NCBI GenBank assembly: GCA_017656145.1
Contig: JACDOI010000007.1
Coordinates: 11,047 to 75,046 of the forward strand
Source of the DNA: Bacillota bacterium
Lineage (GTDB): Bacteria; Bacillota; Limnochordia; Limnochordales; ZCTH02-B6
Length of the DNA: 64,000 nucleotides
Direction of reading: 5' to 3'
Part shown: in pieces, positions 25,823 to 64,000 of the stretch
How positions within the stretch are numbered: position 1 is the stretch's first letter
How the letters are laid out: each line of letters opens with the position of its first letter
Program-made: the position numbers and the translations under genes
Notes under the pieces: model-generated
The model's database searches: none
The model's input: the letters and a program-made list of their open reading frames with translations, nothing else
Told to the model about the DNA's origin: nothing

Positions 25823-26317
25823 GTGCCGGCGATGCCGGCGGGGGTGACGCAATCACCAGAGCGGATCGCCCAAGCGTCGGGCCGGGATTCCCGACCGGCC
25901 GCGCCGGCGGTGAATGGAAACGTCGATCCCATCGTCCGGCTGGGCCGGGCGTTGGCCGACCCGGTAAGAGTTCGCATGCTGATGCTCGTGGCCAGCGGGC
26001 GCCAGTGTTGCTCCGATCTCAGAACCAATGCGCCCGCCGGGACGGGCAAGGATGGCTTGTGCGTATGCGAGCTCGCCGAACATTTCGGCCTCGGCCAATC
26101 CCGTGTGTCCTACCACGTGAAACGGCTAAAGGACGCGGGACTGCTGAAGGAAAGCCGGCGCGGCAAATGGTCCTTCTACTCGCTCGATCGGGACGCGCTT
26201 TGGCAGCTGTTGAGACACATCGAGGATACGCTTCAGGTGGGGACCGGTGGGCCAAAGCAGCCACCGCGCATTGTCGGAAACGGAGGTGAGCGCGCATGTT
26301 GCGGCGTGAAGAGCTGA
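25823..26317 (+). CDS. arsR: ArsR/SmtB-family metalloregulator
   Basis: LADPVRVRMLMLVASG and CVCELAEHFGLGQSRVSYHVKRLKDAGLL. Confidence 0.8.
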   Translation: MPAMPAGVTQSPERIAQASGRDSRPAAPAVNGNVDPIVRLGRALADPVRVRMLMLVASGRQCCSDLRTNAPAGTGKDGLCVCELAEHFGLGQSRVSYHVKRLKDAGLLKESRRGKWSFYSLDRDALWQLLRHIEDTLQVGTGGPKQPPRIVGNGGERACCGVKS

Positions 26318-32971: not shown

Positions 32972-32976
32972 CGCCG

Positions 32977-33291
32977 TTACTCCATGTAGAACGCTTCCTG
33001 AAGAAATTCGACCCGCGGCCGTCCCCGCTCGTCGGTCTCCATGAGCGGGCCCGTAAGGGACCACCATCTCTCCATGACCGGTTCCCGGGCAAGCCGCTCC
33101 AGGCTCCCGTGGGGGTCGTCCGCCTCAAAGTACGCGAACAGCGTCAGCCCATGCCGGTAAATGGAATAGTTGCGGATGCCCGCCCGCCGGTGGGCGGCCA
33201 GCACCTCCTCGTCGATGTCCCGGTGAAGCCGCAAGTACTCGTCAACAGCCGATTCGTGCTTGAGACGCATCACAAAACCGACCCGCGCCAT
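32977..33291 (-). CDS. rhaM: L-rhamnose mutarotase
   Basis: 104 aa: MARVGFVMRLK...YLRLHRD...NYSIYRHGLTLFAYFE. Confidence 0.85.
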   Translation of the reverse strand: MARVGFVMRLKHESAVDEYLRLHRDIDEEVLAAHRRAGIRNYSIYRHGLTLFAYFEADDPHGSLERLAREPVMERWWSLTGPLMETDERGRPRVEFLQEAFYME

Positions 33292-46971: not shown

Positions 46972-47082
46972 GTTCGTCCCGCGCTATCGGGCGCCATCGA
47001 AATCCAACAAGATCACGCGCTTTCCTGCTGGGATGCCATGATCGTACGCAGCGCTCAACGTCTTAGGTGCAGTGTGCTGCTC

Positions 47083-47468
47083 TCAGAAGACCTGAACCAT
47101 GGCCAACAGTACGGTACCGTCACCGTAAGAAACCCATTCATCATCAGTCAAGAACCGAAGAGCTCCCCCTGAGGGAATTGAATGGCAGCGCTGCAAGCCT
47201 GTATGGGTCAAAACGGATCGACCGTGACCAAGCCCGGCTTGCCGTAGTGCGCAGCATAACTGATTTGCAGCATCGCCCGACCGACAATCGGGACGTCGTT
47301 GCCTACTCCGGTGCGGAGCTCGCTCTTCAATGCTTCCGGCGACCGACGAAGCCGTTACCCACATCGGCAGAGGTGTAGTTGCTGGGACGTGCCGATAAAT
47401 TGGGCAATGGCGCGCACGGGCAGGTGCTGACCCCATCGCAGCCGAAGGCTCTTCTTGAGCCTGCGCAT
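47083..47468 (-). pseudogene. Possible IS-type (IS3/IS481-like) transposase N-terminal HTH remnant
   Basis: ATG 47468 lies 7 nt after AAGGAGG and gives MRRLKKSLRLRWGQHLPVRAIAQFIGTS, then a stop at 47355. A shifted frame continues ...TTPLPMWVTAS...HRSRQRRP. No DDE domain follows. Assignment is weak. Confidence 0.3.
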
Positions 47469-47870
47469 GGATAGCCTCCTTCGGGAAAAGTGACTCAAGG
47501 GGATAGATCACAGATGTTGAAGGCGCGACGCCGCTTTCTCTCCGATTCCATCAGCGACAAGGCCCTCAGACAGTTTGCCCGGGGCGTTTGTCTTTTGCAT
47601 CCGATACCCGTCGAAGTCCATATGCGCGGTGTCGACTACATATACTGGGCTATCCTCGGTGGCAAATGGCGCGGGGATCCCGCGGCCCTTCGAAAACACT
47701 TCCCCGACCCGCTCGCCTTAGTTGCGCCCATGCGGGCTGCGCGCTCGGTAATGGAACCCCTGTTCGCACCCGCCAAGCCGCCGGCCCAACCCTCGGAAGC
47801 CGAAAAGCCAAGCCCTGTGATCGTCACGCTCTTGTCTGTGCCGGGGTTAGCGTCGTCAAACCGGGCATCG

Positions 47871-48032
47871 GCCCAAATCCCTCATAGGTAGGCTCGAAAC
47901 GCTGTTCCGAGTGCACGTCAAGAGCAACAAAAAAAGGTTTCCATCCCTCATAGGTAGGCTCGAAACGGACGGCGAGCTGCACGTGACGCTCATCCGACCT
48001 ATGTTTCCATCCCTCATAGGTAGGCTCGAAAC
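47871..48032 (-). CRISPR. CRISPR array 1: 3 repeats, 2 spacers
   Basis: Repeat GTTTCCATCCCTCATAGGTAGGCTCGAAAC at 47937-47966 and 48003-48032. Degenerate outer copy GCCCAAATCCCTC... at 47871-47900. Both spacers are 36 bp. Strand is inferred from the degenerate repeat at the left end and the minus-strand repeat ending ATGGAAAC. Confidence 0.9.
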
Positions 48033-48217
48033 CAACCGAAAGCCCATGATGACGCCGTTTTTTCAGATCGGGTGCAACGCCCAGCACGTGCATCCAGAGA
48101 AGGACCCGATGCCCTCTCGTTCCCTTTATGACAGCGTTTGTCGCTTCTTGCAAGCTGTTGTCGACCCCCCGGGGCTTTTGCACGACCGGGGGTCGACAGC
48201 GCGGCTCAGAGCATCAG
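48033..48217 (-). promoter_or_regulatory. Array-flanking conserved region, copy 1 (putative leader)
   Basis: About three-quarters identical by eye to 51445-51627. Minus-strand promoter-like TTGCAA (48148-48153), 17 nt, CATAAA (48125-48130). GC hairpin at 48160-48197. Confidence 0.45.
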
Positions 48218-48486
48218 GTGGCCTGCGACTTCGGTACCCTATGTCGACCGCGCCACTGCACAGCGTGAGGAGGCCAACACCCTGGCCCTTGCCGAGCCGG
48301 CCAAAATTTGTTGATTCATCTTATCCTGTTCATCCCCCTTCCACCATTTGCAGGTTGTCTACCGGTTGCGCACCTGCGGGGAGATTTGGCCATACGGTCT
48401 CCCAATGCAAGCGCCACCATCGGCCATCGCGCTAGCGGTGCAAAACCGTCGTCGTTATGGCATAATCACCCCCGGAGGTGTCTGAG

Positions 48487-49533
48487 TTGTCACCAGCCCG
48501 CGATGACGCAGCGTCAGCCGCGCCCACTGAGTCCCAAGTATTTGACCTGATCATCGTTGGAGGCGGCCCGTGTGGACTAGCATGCGCGGTCGCCGCTCGC
48601 CGGCATGGGTTGTCCCATCTGATACTAGAGAAGGGGCCCTTTCTCAACACGTTGGTGCGCTTCCCGGAAACAATGAGCTTTTTCAGCTCGGCGGAACGGC
48701 TGGAAATTGGCGGCATCCCGTTTGCTCTGCCGCACTTGCGGCCGACCCGGGCCGAGGGTATCGCGTACTTTCACAAGGTCGCCCAGCGCGAGCAAGTCAA
48801 TCTCCACACCTATGAGCCCGTCACGGAGGTCACCGGCCGTTTCGGGGATTTCACCGTAACGACACTGGATCGCACGGGCCGCAGGCGGTTCTATCGCAGC
48901 CGCGCAGTCGTGATGGCCACCGGGTACTATGACAACCCCAACTTACTGGGCGTTCCGGGGGAAGAGCTGGACCACGTACTGCACCATTACGATCAACCGT
49001 ACCGGTATTTCCGCCAGCGGGTCGTCGTCATCGGCGCGGGCAACTCGGCAGCCCAGGTGGCCCTGGAGCTGTTCCGACACGGCGCCCACGTAACCCTCGT
49101 CCATCGCGGTCCGTCTATTTCTGACCACGTGAAGCCGTGGATCCGGCCTGATCTGGAAGCCCGCCTGCGAAACAACGAAATCCCGGCATACTTCGACACC
49201 GTGGTGGAACGCATCGAACGGGACCGGGTGCATCTAGTGCAAAAAGGCGACAGGCGATTTACTTTGCCGGCCGACTTTGTGCTGGCGATGACCGGGTACC
49301 GGGCCGACCATTCGCAGCTGGTAAAGCTCGGCGTGAACATCGATCCCGTCTCCGGCGCGCCCGTCTACGATCCGGATACGATGGAAACCAATGTGCCCGG
49401 ACTGTACTTGGCCGGCGTCATCGCCGGGGGCCACGAAGCGAACATCTTGATGATCGAAAACGGTCGGTTTCACGGTCCGAAAATCGCAGCGCATCTGGCC
49501 CGCAGGTTGTCAAGAAGAAGCTCAAAGCCTTGA
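48487..49533 (+). CDS. ypdA: YpdA-family FAD-dependent pyridine-nucleotide disulfide oxidoreductase (bacillithiol-system reductase family)
   Basis: FDLIIVGGGPCGLACA, ILEKGPFLNTLVRFPETMSFFSSAERLEIGG, VVVIGAGNSAAQ. TTG 48487 lies 8 nt after GGAGG; GTG 48478 is the alternative start. Confidence 0.8.
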   Translation: MSPARDDAASAAPTESQVFDLIIVGGGPCGLACAVAARRHGLSHLILEKGPFLNTLVRFPETMSFFSSAERLEIGGIPFALPHLRPTRAEGIAYFHKVAQREQVNLHTYEPVTEVTGRFGDFTVTTLDRTGRRRFYRSRAVVMATGYYDNPNLLGVPGEELDHVLHHYDQPYRYFRQRVVVIGAGNSAAQVALELFRHGAHVTLVHRGPSISDHVKPWIRPDLEARLRNNEIPAYFDTVVERIERDRVHLVQKGDRRFTLPADFVLAMTGYRADHSQLVKLGVNIDPVSGAPVYDPDTMETNVPGLYLAGVIAGGHEANILMIENGRFHGPKIAAHLARRLSRRSSKP

Positions 49534-49535
49534 AC

Positions 49536-49580
49536 GACCGGCCCTTGCAGAAGCTGCTCGGCTGCCGCCGGTCCTTGTTT
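49536..49580 (+). terminator. Possible intrinsic terminator after ypdA
   Basis: GACCGGC (49536-49542) pairs with GCCGGTC (49567-49573), with an inner GCAG/CTGC stem, followed by CTTGTTT. Confidence 0.35.
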
Positions 49581-49696
49581 GAGGGGATGGGCGTACCCGC
49601 GCCCGCCCCTGGCCAGTCTGTGTTCCCAACTACCCGTTGGTAGCCACGCAGCCTTAGAAGCTGCTCAACGCTTGTCCAACGCGCCCGCTTCATTTC

Positions 49697-50650
49697 TCAC
49701 CACGTCAGCGGACACAAGGAGCAGAGGTGCCTGGTGTCCCTGCCATATACCTGAGACTCAGACGATTCTTCCCGAACGGGCACTTGGGTCGGTGCAATGC
49801 TTGGGAAGGATGCCGATCTTGCCAGCGATTCCCGTGGAGCGCTCTGCTCTACCTCTGCCGAGACCTCGGCACGCTGTTGTCCGGCCTGCGACAGGATGCT
49901 TTCCGTTCCTGCCGTCGCTTCAGCAGCGGGTTTCGACCCCAGGCCTTCAGGAGCCTCAAGCGTTATTTGAGAAAGTTCCGGGCGAAAGCTCCTATTGATT
50001 AAGCTTGCTATACCTCCCGTCAGATGCGGAGAAAATAATTCCGAAATAAGAGCCCGAGGTTCTTCCTTCCAATCCCAGTCCGGCGGTGCGAAGCCAACCA
50101 CCAAGGCAAGGGCGACGGCCGTCGCACCGATGAGTCTGAAACCTTTCGTTGTTAAGGACCGAGCCCGACCTGTATGCCGCTCGGTACTCGAACCAATTGA
50201 GACAGTCAAAGTCCGCCGCGGTGCCGGTGTTTCAAATGGCCATCCGCCGCGCAGCCATTGAATCAACGCTCTACGATCGTACAAATAAACGCGTTTTCGG
50301 GCGAGCTCCCTTGCCCGTTTGGTAAAAGAAGAGTTTGTGATGACTCAGGCCTGGTCTGCTTCATAATACGACTGCGCCATGAAAACCTCTCGAACGGCCT
50401 GATTACCAACGGGTGTCCTTGACCGTTTCGCTTGCACAGCTATGCGCAGGCCGCGAACCGAGAGGATGAGGTCGGCTCCCTGATCTCCTCCCCTTTTCAG
50501 ACCAACATGCTCAACGTCAAAACCTTCTTCTTCGAACCGTTGTGCCAACCAAGCTTCGAATTCATGGCCTTCCATTGCGTAGATTTGTGAAAGCAACGAG
50601 TTGGGTGATGCAGCTGCCGTCGTTTTCGAGCGTGTCCGGCGAGGCACCAA
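49697..50650 (-). pseudogene. Mrr-type restriction endonuclease domain + TM + C-terminal domain protein, interrupted by an in-frame TGA
   Basis: ORFs 50345-50650 and 49697-50284 are in the same frame. Reading across TGA 50345-50347 gives ...AVQAKRSRTPVGNQAVREVFMAQSYYEADQA*VITNSSFTKRARELARKRVYLYDRRALIQWL, a contiguous Mrr_cat-like domain. Confidence 0.65.
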
Positions 50651-51011
50651 TATCAGGATTCACGCGATTAACGAACTGATCATGAACAATCAATATTCCA
50701 ATACTCTCTGACCGATAGTTCGCGAATCATCAATACAATAGCGAACCAAAGTGCGCGTAGCCGGACGTACAACACACGCGATCACGCCTCTCAGGCCCGC
50801 GTGTCCTCACGCGCCTAGTAGCTCACCTGGTAGCCCAAGAGTGTCTAGTGCTGCACGGCAAGTGCAGGGACAACCGCTATGAATCATCCCCTGCCCCATA
50901 ACAGCCAGCTCCTGCGAACTTGAGCTGCTCCGCGAGAAGGGGACTACGCTCGAAGCAAACGAATTCCGTGCACTAGGCTCTGGCAGATTACTTTCATCCC
51001 CGGCCGTGGGT

Positions 51012-51444
51012 CTTTCCATCCCCCATAGGTAGGCTCGAAACTGCATGAAATCGTGCTCGAAAGCCGGCCGTTTGTCGAGTTTCCATCCCTCATAGGTAGG
51101 CTCGAAACACTGTCTCTGGTGGTGGGCTCTGGATTACGCTCCCGAGTTTCCATCCCTCATAGGTAGGCTCGAAACCAAACGCAGATGAGAAGCCTGTTTC
51201 TGAGAATCCGACGTTTCCATCCCTCATAGGTAGGCTCGAAACTGCGCTGGATTTGGTGCCGGGTCGGCTCATGGGTGAGGTTTCCATCCCTCATAGGTAG
51301 GCTCGAAACCGGCCGAGGTTGTCGTCGAGGAGTGGGAGGCGCAGCTTGGTTTCCATCCCTCATAGGTAGGCTCGAAACCCGGACACTCGGCGATGATGCG
51401 CTTGATGGGGGCGGGTTTCCATCCCTCATAGGTAGGCTCGAAAC
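51012..51444 (-). CRISPR. CRISPR array 2: 7 repeats, 6 spacers
   Basis: Identical 30-bp repeats start at 51079, 51146, 51213, 51280, 51349 and 51415. The outer copy 51012-51041 has 2 mismatches. Spacers are 37, 37, 37, 37, 39 and 36 bp. Confidence 0.95.
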
Positions 51445-51627
51445 CAACCGAAAGCCTATGATGACGGCCTTTCTCCGATCGGGTGCGATACCCGGAACAT
51501 GCACCCCGGGAAGGGCTTGATGCCCTCTCGTTCCCTATATGATAGCCTTTGTCGCTTCTCGCGATCTGTTGTCGATCCCCCGGGGTTTTTGCCTCACCGG
51601 GGGTCGACGACGCGATTCAGAGCACAG
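51445..51627 (-). promoter_or_regulatory. Array-flanking conserved region, copy 2 (putative leader)
   Basis: Begins CAACCGAAAGCC like copy 1. Hairpin at 51571-51608. The -10-like CATATA (51536-51541) is kept, but the -35 position reads TCGCGA. Confidence 0.45.
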
Positions 51628-51715
51628 ATGGATATGAAGAGAGCCGGCTGCTAGTCATCGATTCATCTTCTCCCGCTCATCCCCCTTCCCCCATTTGCGG
51701 GTCGTCGTTCTTGCG

Positions 51716-51799
51716 CTGGAGAAGGTTCCGCTTCTCAATACACTGGTGCACTTCCCAGGGCGACCTCGTGCTGCCATGACCGGGTATCGAGCCGACCAC
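51716..51799 (+). pseudogene. Internally deleted remnant of a second ypdA copy
   Basis: CTGGAGAAGGTTCCGCTTCTCAATACACTGGTGCACTTCCCAG (LEKVPLLNTLVHFP) parallels ypdA codons for LEKGPFLNTLVRFP. It then jumps directly to AMTGYRADH, which in ypdA lies about 210 codons further on. Confidence 0.55.
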
Positions 51800-53108
51800 C
51801 GGCACATCGCCGAGGGGAGATTGAGATTTTCAGCGTTCGCGGAGCTTTGTACGCTAGGTAGGTTTGCGAAGGGCAATCATCCGAACGCCTCGATCAATTT
51901 CTCGATCGGAAGGGCCATCAGCCGGCGCTGCTCATCCAAGACTCATTCATAGTCCGACACCTGTCCGTTAAGCGGGATCAGGGGAATACAGTTCTCCTCG
52001 AAGTTTCGCCGGAGGTGGAGCAAAATATCCCGCACGGTGATGTGGTGGAAAGCAACCCACCGTCGCCAAGGCGGATTTGGGCTGCTTTGTAAGCGATGCA
52101 ATAAGGACTCATCGAGGAGAGGACTTGTCCATCTGTTGGGGCAACATGCCCGTCCAGAAGCTCTAAGGTAATTCACTCTCAATCACAGCCTCCACGCAAG
52201 TATGGACGAAGCCGCCTAGATACACCTCAAGAGCAAACAGGCCGCTGATATCGTCAATCCAGGCCAGTTTTTTGGCAATGGTGGGTTTGTGCACCTCGAA
52301 GCGCGTGCCCGGGAGCTCAGCGGGCGCGCCAGGGTATTTCCAACCTTTTCCCTGCGCTCCAAGCCCCGCTCCCAGGGACACTCGTGTACCAGGTTAGGGT
52401 TTCGGCAGCAATGTTCGTTCTCCTCATAATCCGCGCCCACTGCGACGCCCTCCGGTCATAGAGGGCATGACAAGCGTTCCCCGGGCTTGATGGCCTCAAC
52501 CAAAGCGCCAATCACTTCCCTGATTCCGCCTTTAACGGGGTGAATTGACCGACCAGTTGGCCTCGATCCACATGCGCCGCGCCGCAACCCTCCCTATTGA
52601 AAAGTTACACCACGATAACCCTTTGCGGACATGCATTCACGCTCAATACCAATCTCCTGGGTGAGACGGTCTGCACATGTTCCTCGCCATTCCAGTGCGT
52701 GACCGTCAATTTGACGGCTCAAGAACGGCGCGCTTGCTCACGGATGGTTCTCTGCCAGCTGTGCTTACTTCATAGGTACGGATACTAGCAGTTGGCATGT
52801 GACAGCCGTGCTATAGATGGCATTCGATTTTGAAGGATGCGTTAACTTTCTATCGAATAATTGGCTGAGCTCCGGCCACTCTGCGGTGGCGTCGACAGAC
52901 CACGAGAGTGGATAGCGTCTAAGAGCGGCAAGGTGCCTCGTACAACAACGGCGCCTTGAGCCCTTCCGACACGTTATGCGCGCTTCGTTCTCAGTACGGT
53001 TCGCTGTCGTCCACCTTTATGCCGGTATGTCGGGCAACGGTCCCTGGCCCACCAGGAAGGGCGCGGTACATTGCCATTGCCATTTCGTGCGACCGGGAGG
53101 CGTGACGG

Positions 53109-54104
53109 TTGCAAGAACGCGTCTACACGCTGACCGCTTTGACGGACATTTGGACAGGCTCGATTTCTTTGAGAGAAGACAAGAAGGGCGGCAGTGGGCA
53201 GGATTCAGTTCAGATTGTCCCTGACCGCCTTGTCACCACGGGTCTGCTCGGCTCTATCCGATGGTGGTTCGAAGTCCTCGTGCGCGGACTGGGTGGCGCG
53301 CCCTGCGGTCTGGATGATGAACCGGATACGAGGAAAGAACCTGATGAACCCGGTCATCACTGCGTTGTTTGCGAGCTGTTCGGCTGCACCGGCTGGGCGC
53401 GCAAGTTCCGCTTCGATGTCCTCGCGGAGGACGGGAAGGCACAACAGAACCAGATTACAAAGGATAATCCCTTCCGCATCCGGTTCACACCTTTACGACC
53501 AGTCCGTGATGAAGAGTGGGCACTCCTCGACCTGACCCTGCGGTTGATCGCCGATTACGGCGCGATCGGGGGCAAGACAAGTCTGAAGCCGAGTGGCGCA
53601 AAGAACCCAAAGCGTTACTTCCGTCCTCGCAACTTCGGTTTCGTACGCATCAAACATCGACCAAGCGTGCCAAGGCTGACTGAATACAGGCTCCGGGCGT
53701 ACGTAACCGACCCCCGATGGAGGTACCCCAAACAAGAAGGCTTCTCCTGGGCTTCGCTTGACCACGTTTGGTGTGTGAAGGCACGCTATCACGCGCGCCA
53801 GGATAGGACGAAAAGTACCTTCAATCGAGTGACCGAGCAGCCCGAGAAAGAATGGCGTTCAAGCCATGGTGACTCTCGTTTGGCCAGACGGGAGACTGGT
53901 TCAGAGGGTGATCGTGAACGTAAGAATGTCTTCAGCTTTAAGGAACCACAAGCACAACGGAGCTTCGGGTTTGTTCGGCATCCGAGGGAATTCGAGGCGA
54001 CACAGCAACTCTTGAGAGAGGTATGGAAAGACCTCAGAACCGATGACTTTCTCACCGGCGACGCCATCATCCGCAAGCTTTTCGATGAGGGTGGAAACGA
54101 ATGA
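53109..54104 (+). CDS. cmr1: Type III RAMP subunit, Cmr1-like (Cas7 group)
   Basis: TTG 53109 lies 8 nt after GGGAGG. GLLGSIRWWFEVLVRG (Cmr1-type GxxRxWFR), HHCVVCELFGCTGWARKFRF, and glycine-rich YGAIGGKTSLKPSG. Confidence 0.75.
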   Translation: MQERVYTLTALTDIWTGSISLREDKKGGSGQDSVQIVPDRLVTTGLLGSIRWWFEVLVRGLGGAPCGLDDEPDTRKEPDEPGHHCVVCELFGCTGWARKFRFDVLAEDGKAQQNQITKDNPFRIRFTPLRPVRDEEWALLDLTLRLIADYGAIGGKTSLKPSGAKNPKRYFRPRNFGFVRIKHRPSVPRLTEYRLRAYVTDPRWRYPKQEGFSWASLDHVWCVKARYHARQDRTKSTFNRVTEQPEKEWRSSHGDSRLARRETGSEGDRERKNVFSFKEPQAQRSFGFVRHPREFEATQQLLREVWKDLRTDDFLTGDAIIRKLFDEGGNE

Positions 54105-55063
54105 CTTACGACTTCTACAGCCATCTAGACAGCCGTGTTGACTCTCTGGCTCAAGAATGGCTACCAGAGGGTTTCATTGGATTTGCTAGTGGGTTCGTAG
54201 ACCTGTGCACTGTGGCGTCGGCCCGCGGAAATAGAGACAAGTCTGTGCAGGGGCGCAACAAGTCCAAAGACGGAGCTCGTGATATATACGTGCTCCGCAC
54301 GCTGCAACATATGCGAAAGCTGCGCGGACACCTGCCTGGATGGTTTACGGATTTGTTCGATGTCGAACCGCTCGCCCTCCATCCCGGCTGGCTGACGATC
54401 GACGTTTCGTTCACGCTCCAGACGCCTTGGTACTCCAAAGACGATCGGCCGTTCCATGTGCTTCACAACCCCGTGCGGAAAGAACGTCTTTTCGGCATTC
54501 CTTTCATGTCCGCAGCGAGCTGGAAGGGGTTGCTCCGCTGGTCGATGCAGATGACCCAGGGGTTGATCGGCCCTGAACCCATTGAAGACCGTCAAACGCG
54601 CGAGGTGGCTGCAGCAACGGTGCATCACCTCTTCGGCAACGAGAAAGGCGAAGACGAGCTTTTCCAAGCCGGTGCGCTTCGCTGCTACCCAACTTGGTTT
54701 TCGGCAATCGACTTCGAAGTCATCAATCCCCACAGTCGAAAGACGCGAGCCGGGACGAACCCCATTTACTACGAAGTTGTTCCGGCGAACACGAACGGTA
54801 GGTTACGTCTTCTGTATGCGCCGTTTCCCCGCCAAGCGGAGCACGACGGCGTCGATCCGATCTTCGCCTTGACGACCCTGTTCCACGCGATCGAAAGGCT
54901 CCTCACCCGCTACGGCTTCTCCGCGAAACGGACGGCCGGATGGGGGCTTGCGGAGGTCAACGGCTGGAAGGTCTCCGGTCACGGTGGCACAGAGTGCGGA
55001 ACGCGGGAACAGGTTACCTCGGCCCTGAAGCAGCTTCTTCGAGGAAGAAGGGACGCGCGGTGA
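54101..55063 (+). CDS. cmr6: Type III RAMP subunit, Cmr6-like (Cas7 group)
   Basis: GIPFMSAASWKGLLRW, HLFGNEKGEDELFQAGALRCYPTWF, and C-terminal YGFSAKRTAGWGLAEV G-rich loop. ATGA overlap with cmr1. Confidence 0.7.
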   Translation: MTYDFYSHLDSRVDSLAQEWLPEGFIGFASGFVDLCTVASARGNRDKSVQGRNKSKDGARDIYVLRTLQHMRKLRGHLPGWFTDLFDVEPLALHPGWLTIDVSFTLQTPWYSKDDRPFHVLHNPVRKERLFGIPFMSAASWKGLLRWSMQMTQGLIGPEPIEDRQTREVAAATVHHLFGNEKGEDELFQAGALRCYPTWFSAIDFEVINPHSRKTRAGTNPIYYEVVPANTNGRLRLLYAPFPRQAEHDGVDPIFALTTLFHAIERLLTRYGFSAKRTAGWGLAEVNGWKVSGHGGTECGTREQVTSALKQLLRGRRDAR

Positions 55064-58000
55064 ATGCGACTGGCAAGGACTTGGCGGAAAAGCTCAAGAG
55101 CTCACGAGCGCTGTTGCTCGCCTGCGAAACCATCGGCTGGCTCCATCAGACCGGGAAAGCCCACCCGGATTTCTTGCTCTCGCAAGGACGCGCTGGCGTC
55201 AAGTACACCCCGGAGGATTGGCATAAACAACTCGTCCCTGGCTGGAGCGATCGCCTCCGGTGGGTCAAAGAACGAACGGGAAAGAATGACATCGAATGGC
55301 CTGCTTCCCTAGAGGATTTTCTCTATAAATACAACAAGGCGGGAAGCGAGGATCTCGTCGGTTGCCTCCAAGCTGGCCACGCCATGGCTTCGGGGATCGA
55401 GAAGAGCAACTTCAGTGACAAGGCTTCAGAGTACCTGAAGCAGGACGCAACGCACATGTGGCTCACCAGCGCCTACGGCCGTCCCATGCGCAACCTCCTG
55501 GCCGATCCTCCCGAAGTACTTCGATCCGGCGGATGGGAAACGTTGCTCCAACGCATCGGCGCGCTCCTCGATCGATTAGAGAAGCTGGGCACCGAACGGC
55601 AGGGCGATGTGTATGAGTGGTGGAAATGGCGAGAAGACGCGATTGGCCAAGGCGGTTGGCTACGGCGCGCCTTTGAAGCCACTGTAGCGGATACACGATT
55701 GCCCAACAACGACGTCACCCTCTGGGATCAATCCTACGTCGCAGGCGCGCTTTTCAAGTCCGCCGTCGCGGGGCTGGTCTTGCTCGGTAAACCGCCGAAC
55801 GGTGCATGGGAAAAGCTCAAAACTAAGACCCGGTGGCGAGTGCTGACCGTCGGCTTCGGCACTGAGCACTATCAAGAACGGGCGGTGCGCATCGTCGACT
55901 GGACCGGTGCTGCGCAACAGATCGAAGCCTTCTTTGAAGACGTGCGGCGCTTGATCGAGGTCGAACTCGCGGTAGGTTCGCTCGTATATCGTGACGACCA
56001 AGTTCTAGCCTTCACCTTCCCGGGGCTGCGCTCCGACGACCAAGACCCTGGCCAAAAGAGCTTAGGGACTCACGCGGCCGAAGAGCTTCTCGAGTGGATC
56101 AAGAATCACGTCGACGAGCTAGCACAGCAGCGCTTGCTAGAAACACCGCCGTGGTGCTCGCTTTCTGAATCGACCCGTTCGTTCATCCCCATGGCGAATC
56201 AGGTCGCCGAAGCACGAAAAAAGCTAACCGTCCCCCTGCACCGCCCGTGGACGATCTCGGAAAAAGACGACAAGGAAGACAACAAAAGGAAACGAGGCGA
56301 CGTCTGCCCGGTCTGCCAGGTGCGCTTCAACGGAGGGGCCGGCGGTAAGGAAACCAGCCCGAAGCAACGACCGTGTCGCGTCTGTGGGGAGCGTCGCGAG
56401 AAGCGCTTAAAGGCTTGGTTGACGGAAGGTAAGGATACGATCTGGATTAGCGAGCTGGCCGACGACAACGACCGCGTCGCGCTGCTCACTTTCCGTTTCG
56501 ACCTCGGTCCCTGGCTCGACGGCTCCCGCACCGACTCATTAAGGACCCAATGCATCGCCGCGTGGCGCCGGCACAATCCGTCCGTGAATAATAATAAAGA
56601 TAATCCCATCGACTTAGACGACCCTACGGAAAGCTTGATGCAACACGTCAGGTCCGTCGTTCACAACCCGCGTAAGGTGACGTCCGTCAAACGGGCTGGA
56701 AATCTCGACGACGCCATCATGGCGTCACTCAATCAGGGGTTCTCCTATGACCAAGACCTCAGTGACTTCTACCACAGGATGGTCGAGGATCGCGCCGACG
56801 CTCCCCCACGTTGGGACGCGGTGAAGCACGATCCCGGACGCGCCGCCCATTGGCTTGTCCACCAAATCTTTCGGAAAAACCCGTCGCCTGGAAGAGTTTA
56901 CCGATTCTGGCGGACGGCAGAGGCTTTCTTCGACGAGCTGCTTCCCGTCTTCCGCGAAGCGGCGGCCGCCCATCAAAACCGCTGGCGGACTCGCCGGCTG
57001 CTCCTTGTTCCGGACAAGGCGAGTCAGGGCGGTTGGCAAGATCACGAGACCTACGCGACCCGGTGGAACGACGCGCCGCTTGAACTGCTTTATTGCGCGG
57101 AAAGCGAGAGCTTCCTTACCATCTGCAACCTGGCGCGCATCCTCCGTCCCGAAGAACAACCCCGGGAAAGGTTGAAAGGACTCCGTTTAGAGCTCGAGAG
57201 CGACAAAGGCGATCGGAGTACCCTAACGATTGGTAAAGTCTCCGTCCCCTCGAATCTGGGCTCCTATTCCCCGCTCATTGTTCTCGACCGCCGCCCTGAG
57301 CGCTTTCGAGTGCTCGTCCCGCTTCAAGCCGCGCCTGCCTGCATCGACGCGGCACTCAAGAAATGGCGCGACGAGTTCGCACCGGTGTGGGATCGCATGC
57401 CGCTTCGCTTCGGCGTGGTGGCCTTTTCCCGAATGACGCCCTTCCAGGCGGTCATCGAAGCGGCCCGGAATCTGGAAGACGCCCTCTCCGGTCCGGCGGA
57501 GGAAACGTGGAGTGTAATGGATTGTCAGGTGCGTAATGGCATCGCCGCGCTTCTCTTGATGCGGCGTGATGGAACCCGTGAGATCGTCACCGTTCCCACG
57601 GTGCTCCCCGATGGACGCGTCGACGAGCACTACCCTTATGTGGCCGTAACGAACCCGAGGCATCTGAGGAAGCGGGATTTCACCGTACCGCCCAGTGATA
57701 AGCGAGCGAAACAGACCTATCGGCACGTCCTCGACCTCACGCCCGGGGACGAGATTCTGGTTGCGCCGAGCCGTTTCGCCACCATGTTCTTGGCGAGTAC
57801 GGCAGACCGTTTCCACCCTGTCGATGTTCGTTATGTCTCCGAATGGGACAGAATGCGTGAGATTTGGCATCTTTTGTGCCGCACGGCGCCAAGCGTGACG
57901 TCGTTGCACACCCTTTGGTCGGCACTGGCTGACGTACGGGCGCGGTGGGAAGACCTGAAGCCACGACCGTCAGACCCACCGCCCTGGGCCTCATTGGTCC

Positions 58001-58137
58001 GATCCGTGCTCGCCGACACCTTGGGTGTTCGTCCGTCAGAGCTCGAAGTGCTCGTGGAAGCGGCCGTCTTCGGCATCTTGGAAAAGACCCTCGACTGGCA
58101 TCTGCGAATTCTCAAGCTGGAGGAATCGCCGTCATGA
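55060..58137 (+). CDS. cas10: Cas10/Cmr2-like large subunit with degenerate HD and cyclase motifs
   Basis: GTG 55060 (GTGA overlap) gives 1025 aa. LLLACETIGWLHQTGK in place of LLHDIGK; ADTRLPNNDVTLWDQS (Cmr2 DTRxP motif); CPVC-x19-CRVC zinc finger; PLRFGVVAFSRMTPFQAVIEAARNLEDA (post-GGDD strand-helix). No GGDD. Confidence 0.8.
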   Translation: MNATGKDLAEKLKSSRALLLACETIGWLHQTGKAHPDFLLSQGRAGVKYTPEDWHKQLVPGWSDRLRWVKERTGKNDIEWPASLEDFLYKYNKAGSEDLVGCLQAGHAMASGIEKSNFSDKASEYLKQDATHMWLTSAYGRPMRNLLADPPEVLRSGGWETLLQRIGALLDRLEKLGTERQGDVYEWWKWREDAIGQGGWLRRAFEATVADTRLPNNDVTLWDQSYVAGALFKSAVAGLVLLGKPPNGAWEKLKTKTRWRVLTVGFGTEHYQERAVRIVDWTGAAQQIEAFFEDVRRLIEVELAVGSLVYRDDQVLAFTFPGLRSDDQDPGQKSLGTHAAEELLEWIKNHVDELAQQRLLETPPWCSLSESTRSFIPMANQVAEARKKLTVPLHRPWTISEKDDKEDNKRKRGDVCPVCQVRFNGGAGGKETSPKQRPCRVCGERREKRLKAWLTEGKDTIWISELADDNDRVALLTFRFDLGPWLDGSRTDSLRTQCIAAWRRHNPSVNNNKDNPIDLDDPTESLMQHVRSVVHNPRKVTSVKRAGNLDDAIMASLNQGFSYDQDLSDFYHRMVEDRADAPPRWDAVKHDPGRAAHWLVHQIFRKNPSPGRVYRFWRTAEAFFDELLPVFREAAAAHQNRWRTRRLLLVPDKASQGGWQDHETYATRWNDAPLELLYCAESESFLTICNLARILRPEEQPRERLKGLRLELESDKGDRSTLTIGKVSVPSNLGSYSPLIVLDRRPERFRVLVPLQAAPACIDAALKKWRDEFAPVWDRMPLRFGVVAFSRMTPFQAVIEAARNLEDALSGPAEETWSVMDCQVRNGIAALLLMRRDGTREIVTVPTVLPDGRVDEHYPYVAVTNPRHLRKRDFTVPPSDKRAKQTYRHVLDLTPGDEILVAPSRFATMFLASTADRFHPVDVRYVSEWDRMREIWHLLCRTAPSVTSLHTLWSALADVRARWEDLKPRPSDPPPWASLVRSVLADTLGVRPSELEVLVEAAVFGILEKTLDWHLRILKLEESPS

Positions 58138-59144
58138 CCATTAGCCGAGTACAGAAGAGCTTCGTGTGTTACCGCCACCTCGGAATCGCTGTAGACCCCA
58201 TTCACGTCGGAACAGGCGGAACGCGCCTTGGGCGTGTGGACAACACGATCGTACGGGATCCTGCCACCAAGATTCCGAAGATCCCGGGTTCGAGCCTCGC
58301 AGGCGCGCTCCGAGCCTACGTCGCGATGGCCCAAGAGAATACACGCGATCCAAGTCAGCGAGAGAAGCCCTACTACCCGGATTGCGCGGGCCAAGGGCAG
58401 CCGCGCTCGGGTGGTTCGGATGGGCACTGCGGACAGCGTAACTGCCCGGTGTGCACCGTCTTTGGGTTCGCCCGCAGCAGTGGTGGCTCAAGCGGTTTCG
58501 CGGGTCTTGCGGCCTTCAGCGACATGCACCTTCTCCTCTTCCCTGTTCCGACGCGCGAGGGCCCGATGTGGATCACCTCGCCGAGTGCGCTCCAGCTCGC
58601 CGGAGCGGACGAAAGAATCGAAGAGGTCATCAAAGACGAGCACCGGGTCTACCGCCCAAAGGGCGGGGCAGGCTGCGTGAACCTGGGTTGGCTGATGCTT
58701 GAAGTTGAAGCGCTCGAAGTCGAGCTCGACGGCGCGTTGGACGGCGTTCCAGAGAACATTCGCAAACGCGTGGCGCTGGTCTCGGACAAGCTGTTCAGCC
58801 ACATCGTCAACAGCAACCTGGAGACCCGCACATCCGTCGCCATCGATGCCTCAACCGGCGCCGCACAGGACGGCGCCCTCTTCACCTACGAGGCCTTGCC
58901 GAGAGGCTCGGTGCTCCAGTGGGAGGTCACTTGCCGCTTCCCGGGGCATTTCAGCATCGACAACCAACCCCTTCAGGCAGTCCAGACGCCCGACGATGTC
59001 CACAACGTCGTAAAGAAAGGCTACCCCTACCTCGAAGCTCTCGGCATCGGCGGCATGACCACGCGAGGGATGGGCCGGCTGAGAGTGCTCGGTAATTCAG
59101 GCAGCGACGCCTACGCAGACGGGGCCCAGGGGGGTGAGGCATGA
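58134..59144 (+). CDS. cmr4: Type III backbone RAMP, Cmr4-like (Cas7)
   Basis: DPIHVGTGGTRLGRVDNTIVRDPATKIPKIPGSSLAGALRAY, CPVCTVFGF, C-terminal LGIGGMTTRGMGRL. ATGA overlap with cas10. Confidence 0.85.
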   Translation: MTISRVQKSFVCYRHLGIAVDPIHVGTGGTRLGRVDNTIVRDPATKIPKIPGSSLAGALRAYVAMAQENTRDPSQREKPYYPDCAGQGQPRSGGSDGHCGQRNCPVCTVFGFARSSGGSSGFAGLAAFSDMHLLLFPVPTREGPMWITSPSALQLAGADERIEEVIKDEHRVYRPKGGAGCVNLGWLMLEVEALEVELDGALDGVPENIRKRVALVSDKLFSHIVNSNLETRTSVAIDASTGAAQDGALFTYEALPRGSVLQWEVTCRFPGHFSIDNQPLQAVQTPDDVHNVVKKGYPYLEALGIGGMTTRGMGRLRVLGNSGSDAYADGAQGGEA

Positions 59145-59503
59145 TGCAAAACCTTGACATTCAATGCGCAACGTTGGCGGAAGAGTTGGGCCAGGGTGCG
59201 GACAAAGCACGCAAAAGCCTGTTGACGGATGGCCTCGGCGTTCTCCAAGACCAGGGGCTTTACGCCTTCTTCCTATTTCTGAAGGCAAGCACGAGGGGCA
59301 ACCCCCGAGCGGTAAGCGACGCTTGCGCGTCCTTTCTGAGGAAACACGGACTCTTGCCTGACTCGCAGGACGTGTTCGACGGATTGAAGACCCTTTGCAG
59401 CCAAATGGACGATCTCCTTTTCGCCCGTGAACTCCTGTTGCACGCGCTAGCCTACGCCCGTTACCATGCCCAGGTCAGTCAAGAAGGGGAGGCTCACCGG
59501 TGA
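59141..59503 (+). CDS. cmr5: Small subunit, Cmr5/Cas11-like
   Basis: 120 aa, predicted all-helical. Sits between cmr4 and cmr3 with 4-nt overlaps on both sides. Assigned by size and position only. Confidence 0.55.
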   Translation: MMQNLDIQCATLAEELGQGADKARKSLLTDGLGVLQDQGLYAFFLFLKASTRGNPRAVSDACASFLRKHGLLPDSQDVFDGLKTLCSQMDDLLFARELLLHALAYARYHAQVSQEGEAHR

Positions 59504-60429
59504 GCTGGCAACTATTTCGATGGGCGTGGCGACTTGAAGCCCCCGTGTTCGTGGGCGCACCGCCTGCGGGCTCTCTCAACCGCTGCCGTCTTTACATCCC
59601 GGCGAGGGCGGTTTGGGGCGCGCTCACCGCGGAGCGGGCACGGCTTGACCTCGGCATGAGCAACCGAGGCCTTGCCGCGTACCAAGACGTTGGAGAGGAG
59701 CTACGGCGCCACTTTCGCTTCACCTATCTCTACCCTGCCGAGCGCGTGGGCGAAGCGTGGCGGGCATGGCTGCCGACCTATGAGCCCCGACTCGGCCTTT
59801 GTTGGCAGCGCGAGGACCGATCCGCGGACGCGCCGGTTCCAGATCGCGTGTTCCGCTGTCGCCTGCTCCACACAAGGCCCGCAACCGCGATCGATCCCAA
59901 AAGCGATTCTGCCGCGTCGGGCTCATTGCGAGAGACCGAGTGTCTTGAGACGCGCTGGCGCGATGAACGAGGAGAGGACGCCGGGCCGGTGGCATTGGTC
60001 GGATACGTGTTTGCGAAGGAGTCGGCGGGAACGCCTTCACCCGGAATCGACCGTTTAACGCCGATTCGAAGGCTTTTCCTCGGCGGTGACACCCGCTACG
60101 GCTTAGGGCGCGTCAGCCGAAAAGCGCCAGACAGCGTGAATCCTGTGGACCGCGTCTTCGGGTGCCGCGTGGAGTTGGATGGAGAGGAGCCCGTAGTGCA
60201 TTCGAAGATCGCGCTCGCGCATGCGCTGGCAGAAGCCCAGATGTCCGGAGCGCTTGAGGTTGTAAGCGGTTGGGACTTTGGCCAGCAAACGACGTTGGAC
60301 AAGAAAGGGGCACCACTGTGGAGACCAGGATCACATGTCCGGGCATTCAACGGAAAGGGGCGGTTTCGAATCGATCCATGCGGGATTTGGCACCTTGAGG
60401 CTCCCGATCATTCCGCCGAGGCGCGCTAG
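59500..60429 (+). CDS. cmr3: Cas5-group RAMP, Cmr3-like
   Basis: GTG 59500 (GTGA overlap). RLEAPVFVGAPPAGSLNRCRLYIPARAVWGALTAE and LFLGGDTRYGLGRV G-rich loop. Confidence 0.65.
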   Translation: MSWQLFRWAWRLEAPVFVGAPPAGSLNRCRLYIPARAVWGALTAERARLDLGMSNRGLAAYQDVGEELRRHFRFTYLYPAERVGEAWRAWLPTYEPRLGLCWQREDRSADAPVPDRVFRCRLLHTRPATAIDPKSDSAASGSLRETECLETRWRDERGEDAGPVALVGYVFAKESAGTPSPGIDRLTPIRRLFLGGDTRYGLGRVSRKAPDSVNPVDRVFGCRVELDGEEPVVHSKIALAHALAEAQMSGALEVVSGWDFGQQTTLDKKGAPLWRPGSHVRAFNGKGRFRIDPCGIWHLEAPDHSAEAR

Positions 60430-60496
60430 GGAGTGCTGACCCAATGATCAGGTAGCGTCTTCGTTACCTCTGCAGATGGCGTGCGTGATCTCGGCA

Positions 60497-61052
60497 TCAC
60501 TGGATAAGTTGCCCCGAGGGGAAATACGCCCATTCACCTGCAAAGCTGCCGAGGTCGCGGGAGCTCCTGCCGCATCCCAGGGTCCCGACAAACGGTGTAT
60601 ACTGTGCTGTAAACCGTAATGGGCGAAAGCGTGCGCACGACCGCGACCGGCTCATAAGGGGTGTCCGCTCAACTTCTACGGCCTCCAGCCGGAACTGCGC
60701 TGGCCCGAAGCGGATGAGGGGGCCTGTGGACCACGCTGGCCGCAAACAAATCCACGAAGGATACCAAAGGGGACGTCACAACCAGCCCGGTAAACCGGAT
60801 CAGGTTCCTCCTCACCTCGCCTCGGGCCAGGAGCCGGGAGAAAGTGAACATCCACAGCGAACGCTTGCCATCCAGGATGCCGCGAGCGTGTACCCATCCG
60901 GCCAGGTCGCCGTTGAGGTGGCGGTAGATAAACCCTTGGATTAGGCTGTTGTATTGCACGGGTAATACCGCTTCTTCGGCTGCTGGCCGAAGGCGAAGCC
61001 GTAGTCGTACTGGATCCTCCGTTACGTCCTGGTACCGGAACTTGCCCAGCAT
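60497..61052 (-). pseudogene. cas6: cas6 remnant (multiple frame changes, 3'-truncated)
   Basis: Frame 1 (61052-60669): VRLRLRLRPAAEEAVLPVQYNSLIQGFIYRHL...WMFTFSRLL, a Cas6 N-terminus. Frame 2 continues GPLIRFGPAQFRLEAVEVE. Frame 3 (60668-60534) holds VAVVRTLSPITVYST. There is no room for a C-terminal G-rich loop before the cmr3 stop. Confidence 0.65.
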
Positions 61053-61118
61053 CCGATGATGCTGCCGATTGAAACCATTATTATCTCAACGGCGAAAACG
61101 CCCATGGGCTTTCCCTTG

Positions 61119-62533
61119 TTATACCGCATGGATCCCATCTCGGTCTTGAGCTTCCGGCTCCTCGGCGTCGGCGAACGAGCCTGTGAGGTCTACCACACCG
61201 CACCCCTTCGGATCCCAGCGCACCTTCGTGCCGTAAGGCTTGGAAAGCTCCGCGAGATGCCTGATGATGGCCTCAGCCCTCTCCGGACCGGCGAGCGACG
61301 GCCTGCCCCGGGCGGGACGAGACAATTGAAACCCGAGCTCGACAGGATACAGTTCGATCTTTGTCAAATGCCCGTCATCCCATGTGCACAGCGCCACGAC
61401 AGATTCCCAATACCGGCGCTCTGACGGAAACCCGCGGGTGTCATTCTTGCTGCGGGCATCGAAGAGATCGGCGACGGTCGCTTCCGGGCCCAAACCGAGG
61501 CGTTCGTAGAAGTCCGCGGGTTGATGACGAACGGTTTCATTTTGGAAGATGAAGTTGCCGAGACTGTAGAAGATGGGGGCTCCCTTGTAAATCTCTATAC
61601 CCCGCAGCACATGAGGTCCGTGGCCGATTACCGCATGGGCGCCTTCATCGATACACGCCCTTGCCACGGTCTCGATGAATTCAGCCGCTCGTTCCAGATC
61701 GGAACCCTTTGCCTCATGGGCATGAATGCTGACAAACACCCAATCCGCCTGCCGACGCGCCTCTCGGATGGCTCGGAGATTTCCCTCCAGGTCGCCCGCA
61801 TGGGGTGTCGTCACCACCTTGGGCGTCTCGCCTACCACGAAGCGCCGGCCTAGAAACGTTATCGTTCCTTCGGGGTCCGGCTTTCGGAATCCCAGACGGA
61901 TCCTGAGCCGATGTTCCGCGCCCAGATCGAGCTCCTCGTCGAGCTTTTGCAGGAACTGAAACTGATCCGGTGTCACCTGGATAGTGGTCTCGTATCGCTG
62001 GGGGTTCAGACCCGGTCTACCCTGAAGGTCGGGACGGCTGTTTCCCGCCCGGTTGAATTCATTGAACGTGGAGCACATCGCTACCAACCCGACGCGGCCA
62101 GCATCAAGTTCCAGGTATGCCGGACGGCGGGCCTCCGCCAGATTGCGGCCGACCCCGGCATGAACGGCCCGGCCTCCTCCAGCGTCTTCATGGTGGCGAA
62201 CAGCCCGCCCTCGCCCCAGTCGAGGGTGTGGTTGTTAGCCCAAGCGTAAAGGTTAAAGGACATCCACTGAAGTTCTCGGAAAATCGAGGGATGGGCGCAC
62301 ACCCACGTGCCGCCGCTCTCCGCCTGAGGGTATCCTTCGAACTTGTGAAAGAGCATCTCCATGTTGGTAAACCGCACGTCCGCGCCCAAAAGAATCTCCC
62401 TAAGGCGCAGAAACGCCGGTTCGGTAAAGCAAGACAGCCGCTGCGTGATCAGGCTGTCCCCTGTCGCCGCCAAAACCAGCCTTCCCCGCCGCGGATGGAC
62501 CATAGGCGTAAACCTCCCGGTGCTGCTACCCAT
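61119..62533 (-). pseudogene. CapA-family (PGA_cap metallophosphatase-like) gene with a frameshift
   Basis: Upstream ORF: [10 protein letters not shown]...NLYAWANNHTLDWGEGGLFATMKTLEEAGP. A frame change at about 62166 restores VHAGVGRNLAEARRPAYLELDAGRVGLVA and joins the downstream ORF (HAVIGHGPHVLRGIEIYKGAPIFYSLGNFIFQ). Confidence 0.65.
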
Positions 62534-62648
62534 CGCTTTCTGCCAACCACATCTCCGTACTCAGCAGGGACAAAAGGGCCTACCAGGCCAGCAATGTGGG
62601 CCATGTCGACGAACAACACGGCGCCTACCTCGTCACAGATGGCCCGCC

Positions 62649-64000
62649 TCCTTTGCAGGCATCCACGCCAGCCGCCTCGGACAACGCGGGCTGGATGCCG
62701 TCATGGAGAGCATCCGTGCGTGTTACGCCTCCCTGTGGACCCCCCGGGCCGTCGCGTATCGCCGCCGCTTCAACCTGCGGGACGACGAAGTGTTGTGCGC
62801 TGTCGTTCTGTGTCGCATGGTAGGCGCCTGCGACGACCCCACCCGGCAACCCCAGGCGGCGGGCGTCGCGTTCTCTTGCGATCCCCGGACCGGGCGAGCC
62901 GACGTCGTCACCATCGGCGGCGTGCGGGGTCTGGGCCAAGCCGTGGTCGACGGCAGCGGCAACCCCGAGGAGATCGTCGTCCAAGTCGGCTGGGATTTCC
63001 AGGTGCTGGAGCGGCGCGAGGGAACCGATCGGGTGCTCACCGACGAGCAAGCCATTCGCCTCGCCCACCTGGTACAGCGGGTGCATTGGGCGCTCGGCGA
63101 CGGGCAAGACCCGCAAGATGTGGAATGGGCGTTCGACGGATCGTCCTTTTGGCTCCTTCAAGCGCGTCCGGTAACCCGCGTGCCCCGCTACACCTTTCCG
63201 GGGGCCGGGCAACTTCCCACCGTCTGGTCCAACGGAAACCTCAAAGACGCCCTGCCCGGCGTCCTCTCTCCCCTCGGGTGGAGCATCTCCGCGTGGATGA
63301 TCCGGCACAACCTCTTCGCGCCCCACCGGGCCGCGGGGTACGCTGTCCCTTCGGGTCTAGAGGCGGTCCGCCGCTTCGCCGGCCGGGCGTATTTCGACCT
63401 CACTTCCCTTCTTTGGGCGTTCTACGACGGCCTGGCCATGACGGCCGGCGAGTTTAACCGGAGCCTGGGCGGCCATCAGCCGGAGCTTCCCGTTCCCGAG
63501 CCCGATCCTCTCAAAGGCCCGCACGCCCGCCGCCGCACCCGCGCCCGCCTCAAGCTTTTGCGGGCCGTCTTGCGCGCGGACAAGCGCCTCCCCGCCGAGG
63601 TCCAAGCCCGCCTTGACGCCGTGAAGCGCCACCGCGGCGTCGATTTCGCGGCCGAGTCGCTGGAACAGTTGCGGCAGAGACTGCAAGACCAGATGGAGCA
63701 AGCGTACCAATTTGGACCCCTCAGCATGCTGGCCAACAGCTCAGCGGGCCTTTGGCATGATCTCCTGGAAAAAGTGCTGCTCAAGGTCGCTCCCGGGCAA
63801 GCCGCCGCCCTCGCCTCGCAACTGGTGGCGGGAGCGGGAAACGTCGTCAGCGCGGAGCACGGCTACCGCCTTTTCAACCTGGCGGCCAAAGCGGCCGGCG
63901 ATGCCGAAGCCCGGACGCTGCTCGCATCGGAACCCTTGGATGCGTCCGCGTGGCGGCGGCTTTCCGCCGATTCAGCGTTCCGCCGGGAACTGGAGCAATT
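62649..64000 (+). CDS. PEP/pyruvate-binding (PPDK_N / rifampin-phosphotransferase-like) protein, 3' end outside window, N-terminal ATP-grasp part apparently missing
   Basis: Frame 3 is open to the window end and absent from the ORF track. SFAGIH...[90 protein letters not shown]. Only about 45 codons are available upstream before the divergent capA-like gene. Confidence 0.6.

Follow-up and report, generated by a model that had tools for sequence, protein, structure and literature searches.

Here we describe a type III CRISPR-Cas locus in a 64,000-nucleotide (nt) stretch of a Bacillota genome (contig JACDOI010000007.1), hereafter the window, and in particular its large subunit Cas10, a protein of 1025 amino acids (aa). 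An earlier note on this DNA, made from the letters alone, had proposed that this Cas10 has lost both of its catalytic centres. Our analysis bears out that the residues of both centres are substituted, but not that this is a peculiarity of the locus: the cyclase is absent throughout the family, and the Asp of the HD (His-Asp) dyad is uniformly Met in the clade to which the protein belongs. Both losses are already documented, that of the cyclase for the whole of subtype III-C and that of HD for roughly half of its members. The window holds a standard subtype III-C (Csx11-type) effector operon of six subunits, and we consider it probable, at roughly 60%, that the III-C complex makes no cyclic oligoadenylate (cOA) and has no canonical HD DNase, that it acts through RNA cleavage by Cmr4 guided by CRISPR RNA (crRNA), and that Cas10c, the Cas10 of III-C, is mainly structural. 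How a type III system achieves defence when its Cas10 neither signals nor cuts DNA is a question acknowledged as open (PMC7192623).

Identity of the locus

Csx11 has been defined as a very divergent Cas10 of subtype III-C (PMC3973734), and several assignments place the window protein in this family. It is 100% identical to the NCBI entry 'MAG: CRISPR-associated protein Csx11 [Firmicutes bacterium]', passes the NCBIfam model TIGR02682 (cas_csx11; cutoff 248.95) with 297.8 bits (E=2e-88, aa 203-986) and matches the PADLOC model Cas10c (CAS-III-C large subunit, PDLC01314) over nearly its full length (aa 10-1019, E=4.7e-120). The open reading frame (ORF) at 55060-58137 (+) begins with a GTG that overlaps the cmr6 stop codon; an alternative in-frame ATG at 54940 would lengthen cas10, and it is the 1025-aa form that stands in the deposited protein and in an independent Logan assembly. 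Since the Logan assembly encodes an identical Cas10 protein, the Gln at position 30, to which we return below, did not arise as an error of a single assembly. The effector genes are as follows.

53109-54104, + strand: cmr1-like RAMP (Cas7-group) subunit (TIGR01894, E=1.7e-11; Pfam RAMPs, E=3e-16)
54101-55063, + strand: cmr6-like RAMP subunit (PADLOC Cmr6, E=1.9e-62)
55060-58137, + strand: cas10 of III-C (csx11), 1025 aa (TIGR02682, PADLOC Cas10c, structure model with Foldseek)
58134-59144, + strand: cmr4 (Cas7 backbone RNase), 336 aa (TIGR02580, 109.5 bits, cutoff 87)
59141-59503, + strand: cmr5 (Cas11 small subunit) of the III-C type (PADLOC Cmr5 CAS-III-C, E=2.3e-26)
59500-60429, + strand: cmr3 (Cas5) (PADLOC Cmr3, E=1.5e-71)

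All six ORFs are intact, with overlapping start and stop codons, and the 3-kb cas10 is uninterrupted. Their order, cmr1-cmr6-cas10-cmr4-cmr5-cmr3, matches that of III-C, which Makarova in 2015 reportedly gave as cas7(cmr1)-cas7(cmr6)-cas10-cas7(cmr4)-cas11(cmr5)-cas5(cmr3). The locus is thus no new kind of system, and it is already annotated as III-C in public databases.

The fold agrees with this assignment. Searches of the PDB by sequence, with the single protein and with a 70-sequence profile, found no Cas10, because Csx11 is too diverged for HMMER. An AlphaFold2 (AF2) model built on 70 homologs (pLDDT 85.5, pTM 0.87) was compared with the PDB by Foldseek, and all 50 of the 50 matches listed were Csm1 or Cmr2 chains, led by 6ifn_A (E=6.4e-9, TM 0.42/0.56); no solved structure of a III-C complex was found. 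Translation of 55060-58137 confirmed every motif that the earlier note had quoted, down to its residues and nucleotides, including ADTRLPNNDVTLWDQS at aa 210-225, ALLTFRFDLGPW at aa 474-485, PLRFGVVAFSRMTPFQAVIEAARNLEDA at aa 781-808 and a zinc finger that is intact, as claimed. The domains and residues considered below are listed here.

55060-55674, + strand: N-terminal all-helical HD-like domain, aa 1-205 (hhalign to the HD region of Thermus thermophilus Csm1, TthCsm1, E=2.8e-5; modelled secondary structure)
55144-55149, + strand: H29-Q30 in L-H29-Q30-T-G-K, paired with TthCsm1 L-H15-D16-V-G-K
55330-55332, + strand: Y91, paired with H70 of TthCsm1 RHHE (second conserved His)
55378-55401, + strand: H107...E114-K115 (GHAMASGIEK), paired with TthCsm1 A-D-TY-ASK-E-R; the Cas10 'aD..aSg.[DE][RK]' motif with Asp changed to His
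55726-55731, + strand: D223-Q224 in NDVTLWDQS, paired with D-H of TthCsm1 SLYDH; His changed to Gln
56305-56385, + strand: C4 zinc finger CPVC-x19-CRVC, aa 416-442, each Cys kept in 118-120 of 120 family representatives
56500-56508, + strand: D481-L-G483, presumed palm-2 beta-1 'D-x-D' position, after strand 472-480; placed by position and secondary structure, without significant alignment
57292-57303, + strand: R745-P746-E747-R748, hairpin turn in the GGDD slot (hhalign to T. thermophilus Cmr2, TthCmr2; AF2 hairpin; PF22335 in relatives)

Between palm-2 and the C-terminal helical domain lies an all-beta domain of about 100 aa (aa 815-912, 57499-57795). With a separate model of the beta-rich insert (aa 806-930; pLDDT 77), a Foldseek search of the PDB for a hidden enzymatic domain gave a best E of 0.067, with vague small beta-barrel or Mop-like resemblances only.

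The HD and GGDD slots of Cas10

Family representatives clustered at 50% identity were collected (999 matches at E<=1e-3), and 120 full-length ones were aligned; the targets for hhalign were the T. thermophilus HB8 Csm1 and Cmr2 sequences from the annotated record of plasmid pTT27. An alignment of close homologs with TthCsm1 was marginal (E=0.12), and the more diverse 120-representative profile was needed, which aligned with TthCsm1 at E=2.8e-5 over 180 columns. LLLACETIGWLHQTGK stands at the N-terminus, with H29-Q30 encoded by CAT CAG. The alignment pairs Q30 with D16 of TthCsm1, as the earlier note had proposed for the HD Asp, so that the protein has no His-Asp dyad where TthCsm1 and 57 of the Csx11 representatives have theirs. 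Four of the seven HD-site positions are non-canonical (D30Q, H91Y, D107H and H224Q), and beyond the dyad the only canonical residues are E114 and D223, as Y91, H107 and Q224 differ. The only 'HD' dipeptide of the protein (aa 590-591) lies outside the N-terminal domain.

Neither GGDD nor GGDE occurs as a string anywhere in the 1025 residues. LIVLDRRPERFRVLVP, at aa 739-754, includes RPER at 745-748, which the earlier note had placed where GGDD should sit. Alignment of the Csx11 profile with TthCmr2 (E=2.4e-4) pairs aa 750-804 with Cmr2 384-441, and RPER falls on the Cmr2 GGDD (379-382) by extending the register leftwards, the aligned block itself starting at R750; read in this way, the placement holds. 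In the AF2 model, a beta hairpin with strands 740-745 and 748-754 turns at 745-748 and leads into a long helix, and the Pfam family PF22335 ('Cas10/Cmr2 second palm domain') is matched above its cutoff by the same segment in distant Csx11 relatives. The profile alignment, which the note itself had named as a check, thus puts neither a functional HD dyad nor a GGDD-like acidic pair into the two sites.

The 120 representatives all have [S/E]-P-x-x in place of GGDD, with P746 in 118 of 120, and on this alignment the replacement of GGDD is family-wide and not private to the window protein. This agrees with published accounts, in which the polymerase of III-C is inactivated (PMC8730458; PMC12669027) and III-C has neither cyclase sites nor known effectors, with HD recognisable in only half of its members (PMC11229360); the note, too, describes III-C Cas10 as cyclase-inactive. 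Its further statement that the strand entering palm-2 has no D-x-D is right for the window protein (D481-L-G483), but the clade consensus at this presumed palm-2 position is D-x-[E/D], found in most close relatives.

HD-site types across the Csx11 family

The dyad of the 120 representatives is H-D in 57, H-M in 34, H-L in 11, H-N in 6 and H-Q in 2, the rest being other or missing, a tally that agrees with the published statement that half of the family has HD (PMC11229360). When the site is written as a signature of positions 29-30, 91-107-114 and 224, the following types can be told apart.

HD.HDD.H: the full canonical set, about 37 representatives
HD.xH[E/D].W: dyad kept, other ligands changed, about 20 representatives
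HM.HHE.Q: about 32 representatives
HL.HH[D/E].[Y/A/Q]: about 11 representatives
Degenerate: a few representatives, including FN/IL..ED.Q in 3

About one in four of all Csx11 representatives carry the Met-type signature in near-invariant form. Of the 120 closest homologs (at least 50% identity), 118 have Met at position 30, and Gln stands there in the window protein alone. Relatives were found in 108 genomes when one genome per GTDB species was scanned, in phyla that include Acidobacteriota, Chloroflexota, Thermodesulfobacteriota, Planctomycetota, Bacillota and Spirochaetes. Among 54 readable Cas10 ORFs, taken from the related loci and a Logan contig, 52 are H-M, one is cut at its N-terminus and one is the window's own H-Q; 12 of the H-M ORFs had been retrieved through a pattern unrelated to the H-M motif. 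Position 91 is His in 33 of 36 Met-clade representatives, compared with 36 of 57 of the HD type. We found no published description of the H-M / H-H-E / Q signature, which is a property of the clade and not of the window locus.

The window protein itself reads HQ.YHE.Q and has therefore lost two signature residues of its clade (M30Q and H91Y). It deviates at 24 of the 357 positions with at least 90% conservation, the median member doing so at 9, and its deviations include the otherwise near-invariant M30, H414, R775 and G448; part of this excess is expected, because the homologs were gathered with this protein as the query, which makes it their outgroup. Judged by these alignments, Gln30 is a private minor variant of the clade-wide Met.

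About 20 of the 120 representatives (P0155, P0177, P0181, P0184, P0221, P0235, P0248 and others) keep the H-D dyad while position 91 is variable, D107 is changed to His and H224 to Trp. A census that relies on the dyad alone would probably overcount functional III-C nucleases.

CRISPR arrays, cas6 and surroundings

Two arrays that share the repeat GTTTCCATCCCTCATAGGTAGGCTCGAAAC lie upstream of the effector operon, and a cas6-like sequence lies downstream of it.

47877-48032, + strand: small CRISPR array of GTTTCCATCCCTCATAGGTAGGCTCGAAAC, two full repeats and a 5'-truncated copy; repeat orientation ambiguous
51012-51444, + strand: CRISPR array with 7 copies of the 30-nt repeat GTTTCCATCCCTCATAGGTAGGCTCGAAAC (0 matches expected by chance), 2 mismatches in the first repeat, spacers of 36-39 nt
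60669-61052, - strand: cas6 fragment (PADLOC Cas6b, E=2e-17, profile positions 2-92 of 235)

A search of the window for targets of its own spacers found none. In a three-frame view the Cas6-like sequence goes on in another frame, towards 60340, and cas6 is probably truncated or frameshifted. As the gene is only an N-terminal fragment, the crRNAs must be processed by a Cas6 from elsewhere. No profile for Cas1, Cas2 or Cas4 was matched among the window ORFs of at least 110 aa, a cutoff below which a Cas2-sized ORF would fall. The own Cas6 and the adaptation module (Cas1/Cas2) by which an autonomous CRISPR-Cas locus is recognised were thus not found together with the effector genes; III-C loci are usually without arrays and adaptation genes of their own (PMC12669027).

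A PADLOC scan that covered 56 non-cas ORFs found no CARF, SAVED or Csm6/Csx1 gene in the window, as the earlier note had reported. Profile matches to 'Csa3'/CARF at 25823-26314 and 32168-33064 were rejected, as they cover the helix-turn-helix portion of the profile only and lie about 23-30 kb away.

The interval of about 1.6 kb from the array to cmr1 (51450-53100) contains no ORF that reaches 110 aa, the longest having 85 aa; degraded genes, a leader or a promoter may lie there. On the minus strand at 61119-62533, a PGA_cap/MslH-like (lasso-peptide epimerase-like) gene is apparently split into adjacent ORFs of 322 and 150 aa. Third-position GC content is 0.54-0.70 in 47000-64000, which comprises the cas operon and its neighbours, compared with 0.75-0.84 in the upstream housekeeping genes (1-46000), and the low values of the cas region are consistent with a horizontally acquired island.

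Proposed mechanism and alternative explanations

Cmr4 of the window keeps Asp36 (GRVD36NTIVRD, nt 58239-58241), which is Asp in 69 of 71 clade members and lies in a G-x-V-D-N motif; we take it to be the equivalent of the catalytic D26 of Pyrococcus furiosus Cmr4. Because this Asp is kept and the window has no CARF or SAVED gene, crRNA-guided RNA cleavage is the only predictable activity of the complex. The earlier note had arrived at the same activity, and with both Cas10 slots substituted the sequences continue to point to it. In the mechanism that we propose, crRNAs from the two adjacent arrays would guide a six-subunit Cmr-like complex to bind transcripts complementary to the crRNA, and the Cmr4 backbone would cleave the bound complementary RNA. 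Cas10c would serve as the structural large subunit, without cOA synthesis and without a canonical HD DNase. We infer from the substituted residues that the complex would have neither DNase nor cyclase activity, and RNA cleavage or binding would then be its defence output.

Beside these residues, Cmr4 has an insertion rich in Cys and His at aa 84-107 (58383-58454; C84...H98-C99...C104-x-x-C107), which is kept in 67 of 71 clade members and by its residue pattern looks like a zinc-binding knuckle.

Several points weigh against RNA cleavage by Cmr4 as the whole of the immune output. In the III-B system of P. furiosus, the Cas10 DNase and the cOA-activated Csx1 are redundant activities that give immunity to plasmids, and how III-C to III-F execute immunity is stated as not known (PMC7192623); we found no experimentally characterised III-C complex in the searchable literature. 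By analogy, in a complex without DNase and cOA, cleavage by Cmr4 alone may not be protective. Moreover, the substituted site of the Met clade is near-invariant (H29 in 36 of 36 representatives, M30 in 34, H91 in 33, H107 in 36, E114 in 35 and Q224 in 35), which suggests that it still does something. With a mean pairwise identity of 0.317 in the Met clade and 0.287 in the HD-bearing relatives, the N-terminal domain of the clade is, as far as sequence conservation tells, maintained and not decaying.

These observations raise the alternative that the N-terminal site of the Met clade, in which H-D/H-D-D/D-H has become H-M/H-H-E/D-Q, is re-tooled and not dead, and that it supplies the immune output as a different metal centre, through nuclease chemistry, as a ligand sensor or as a docking site for a trans-acting partner. 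The substitutions at the four former ligand positions are coordinated and near-invariant among representatives that share only about 30% identity, in a domain as conserved as that of the HD-bearing relatives, and the truly degenerate state (FN/IL..ED.Q) of three representatives looks different; in addition, RNA cleavage alone is not among the activities that confer immunity in P. furiosus (PMC7192623). We nevertheless hold this explanation to be somewhat unlikely, as the site no longer has the central, bridging Asp of HD phosphohydrolases, no conserved partner gene appears in 80 related loci and the conservation could equally reflect structural contacts in the complex, while the window protein, which is without two of the signature residues (M30Q and H91Y), argues against their strict necessity. 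If it were true, the re-tooled Met-type domain would supply the missing immune output of those III-C systems in which cyclase and HD are both lacking. The Met clade lends itself to testing whether cleavage of RNA is enough by itself or the domain has taken on a new role.

It is improbable, in our view, that the locus is instead decaying or a non-defensive remnant, in which the private substitutions of Cas10 would reflect relaxed selection. The short arrays, a cas6 that is merely a fragment, the lack of a cas1, cas2 or cas4 match and the 24 deviating positions, M30, H414, R775 and G448 among them, would all fit such a state. However, the six effector ORFs are intact with coupled codons, and cas10 is uninterrupted over 3 kb; Asp36 of Cmr4 and the zinc-finger Cys are kept, missing arrays and adaptation genes are normal for III-C (PMC12669027), and the deviation count is inflated by the outgroup position of the query. 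That the complex cooperates with a second CRISPR system, or with a host nuclease whose gene lies elsewhere, an example being a type I system that gives Cas6, Cas1-2 and possibly Cas3, appears to us about as improbable as decay. A few related loci do adjoin type I-G Cas3g, Cas5/6g and Cas1/Cas4 fusions, and the truncated cas6 of the window means that crRNA processing has to come from elsewhere, but no more than 6 of 80 loci show the association, the 64-kb window contains nothing of the kind, and shared arrays or a shared Cas6 alone would give no output that degrades DNA. Target-RNA cleavage by Cmr4 within a complex that Cas10c mainly holds together remains the reading that we prefer.

Comparison with known systems

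With the III-C systems (MTH326-like; Csx11, TIGR02682) the window locus shares the profile match, the gene order, a diverged Cas10 in which GGDD is replaced and the lack of cOA-sensor genes, and nothing essential differs: the window protein belongs to the HD-less half and has private Gln30 and Tyr91 for the Met and His of its clade. Csm1 of III-A and Cmr2 of III-B have the same fold, C4 zinc finger and palm-2 hairpin-helix-strand, as well as the motifs L-H-x-x-G-K, aSG.[DE][KR] and D-V-[ST]-L-[WY]-D of the HD-like domain. The window protein differs from them by substitutions at 4 of 7 HD-site positions, by RPER in place of GGDD and by the extra beta domain of about 100 aa (aa 815-912), and its sequence similarity to them is visible by profile-profile alignment only.

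An inactivated cyclase and the lack of cOA-dependent ancillary genes are also features of III-F, III-G and III-H, which differ from the window locus in gene content and Cas10 families; unlike the window protein, III-F generally retains the HD nuclease (PMC11229360). The output predicted here from sequence, crRNA-guided RNA cleavage by Cas7-type sites without cOA or an HD DNase, is shared with III-E (Cas7-11/gRAMP). III-E, however, has no Cas10 and consists of a single fused protein with a caspase-like protease partner, and no such partner was seen at the window locus.

Genes neighbouring related loci

The six effector genes recur in 66-77 of the 80 related loci. When all ORFs of these loci were clustered, no conserved partner gene emerged, the non-core clusters occurring in at most 10 loci. 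The commonest non-core neighbours are the Hma methylase/ATPase, type I-G Cas3g and Cas5/6g, Cas1/Cas4, WYL and a nucleotidyltransferase-like protein. The HmaB methylase, the HmaC ATPase and the nucleotidyltransferase-like gene, together with a small adjacent ORF, stand beside III-C operons in 6-10 of 80 loci (L008, L010, L020, L022 and others), a recurrence that is probably co-location in defence islands.

One related locus (L002), on plasmid pHB5018b of T. thermophilus HB5018 (NZ_AP024271.1: 5215-24096), resembles III-C but is broken up by IS3 and ISTth8 transposases. Its Cmr4 shares 52% identity with that of the window, and the position of cas10, from the RAMP gene to cmr4, is taken up by two separate 'hypothetical protein' ORFs.

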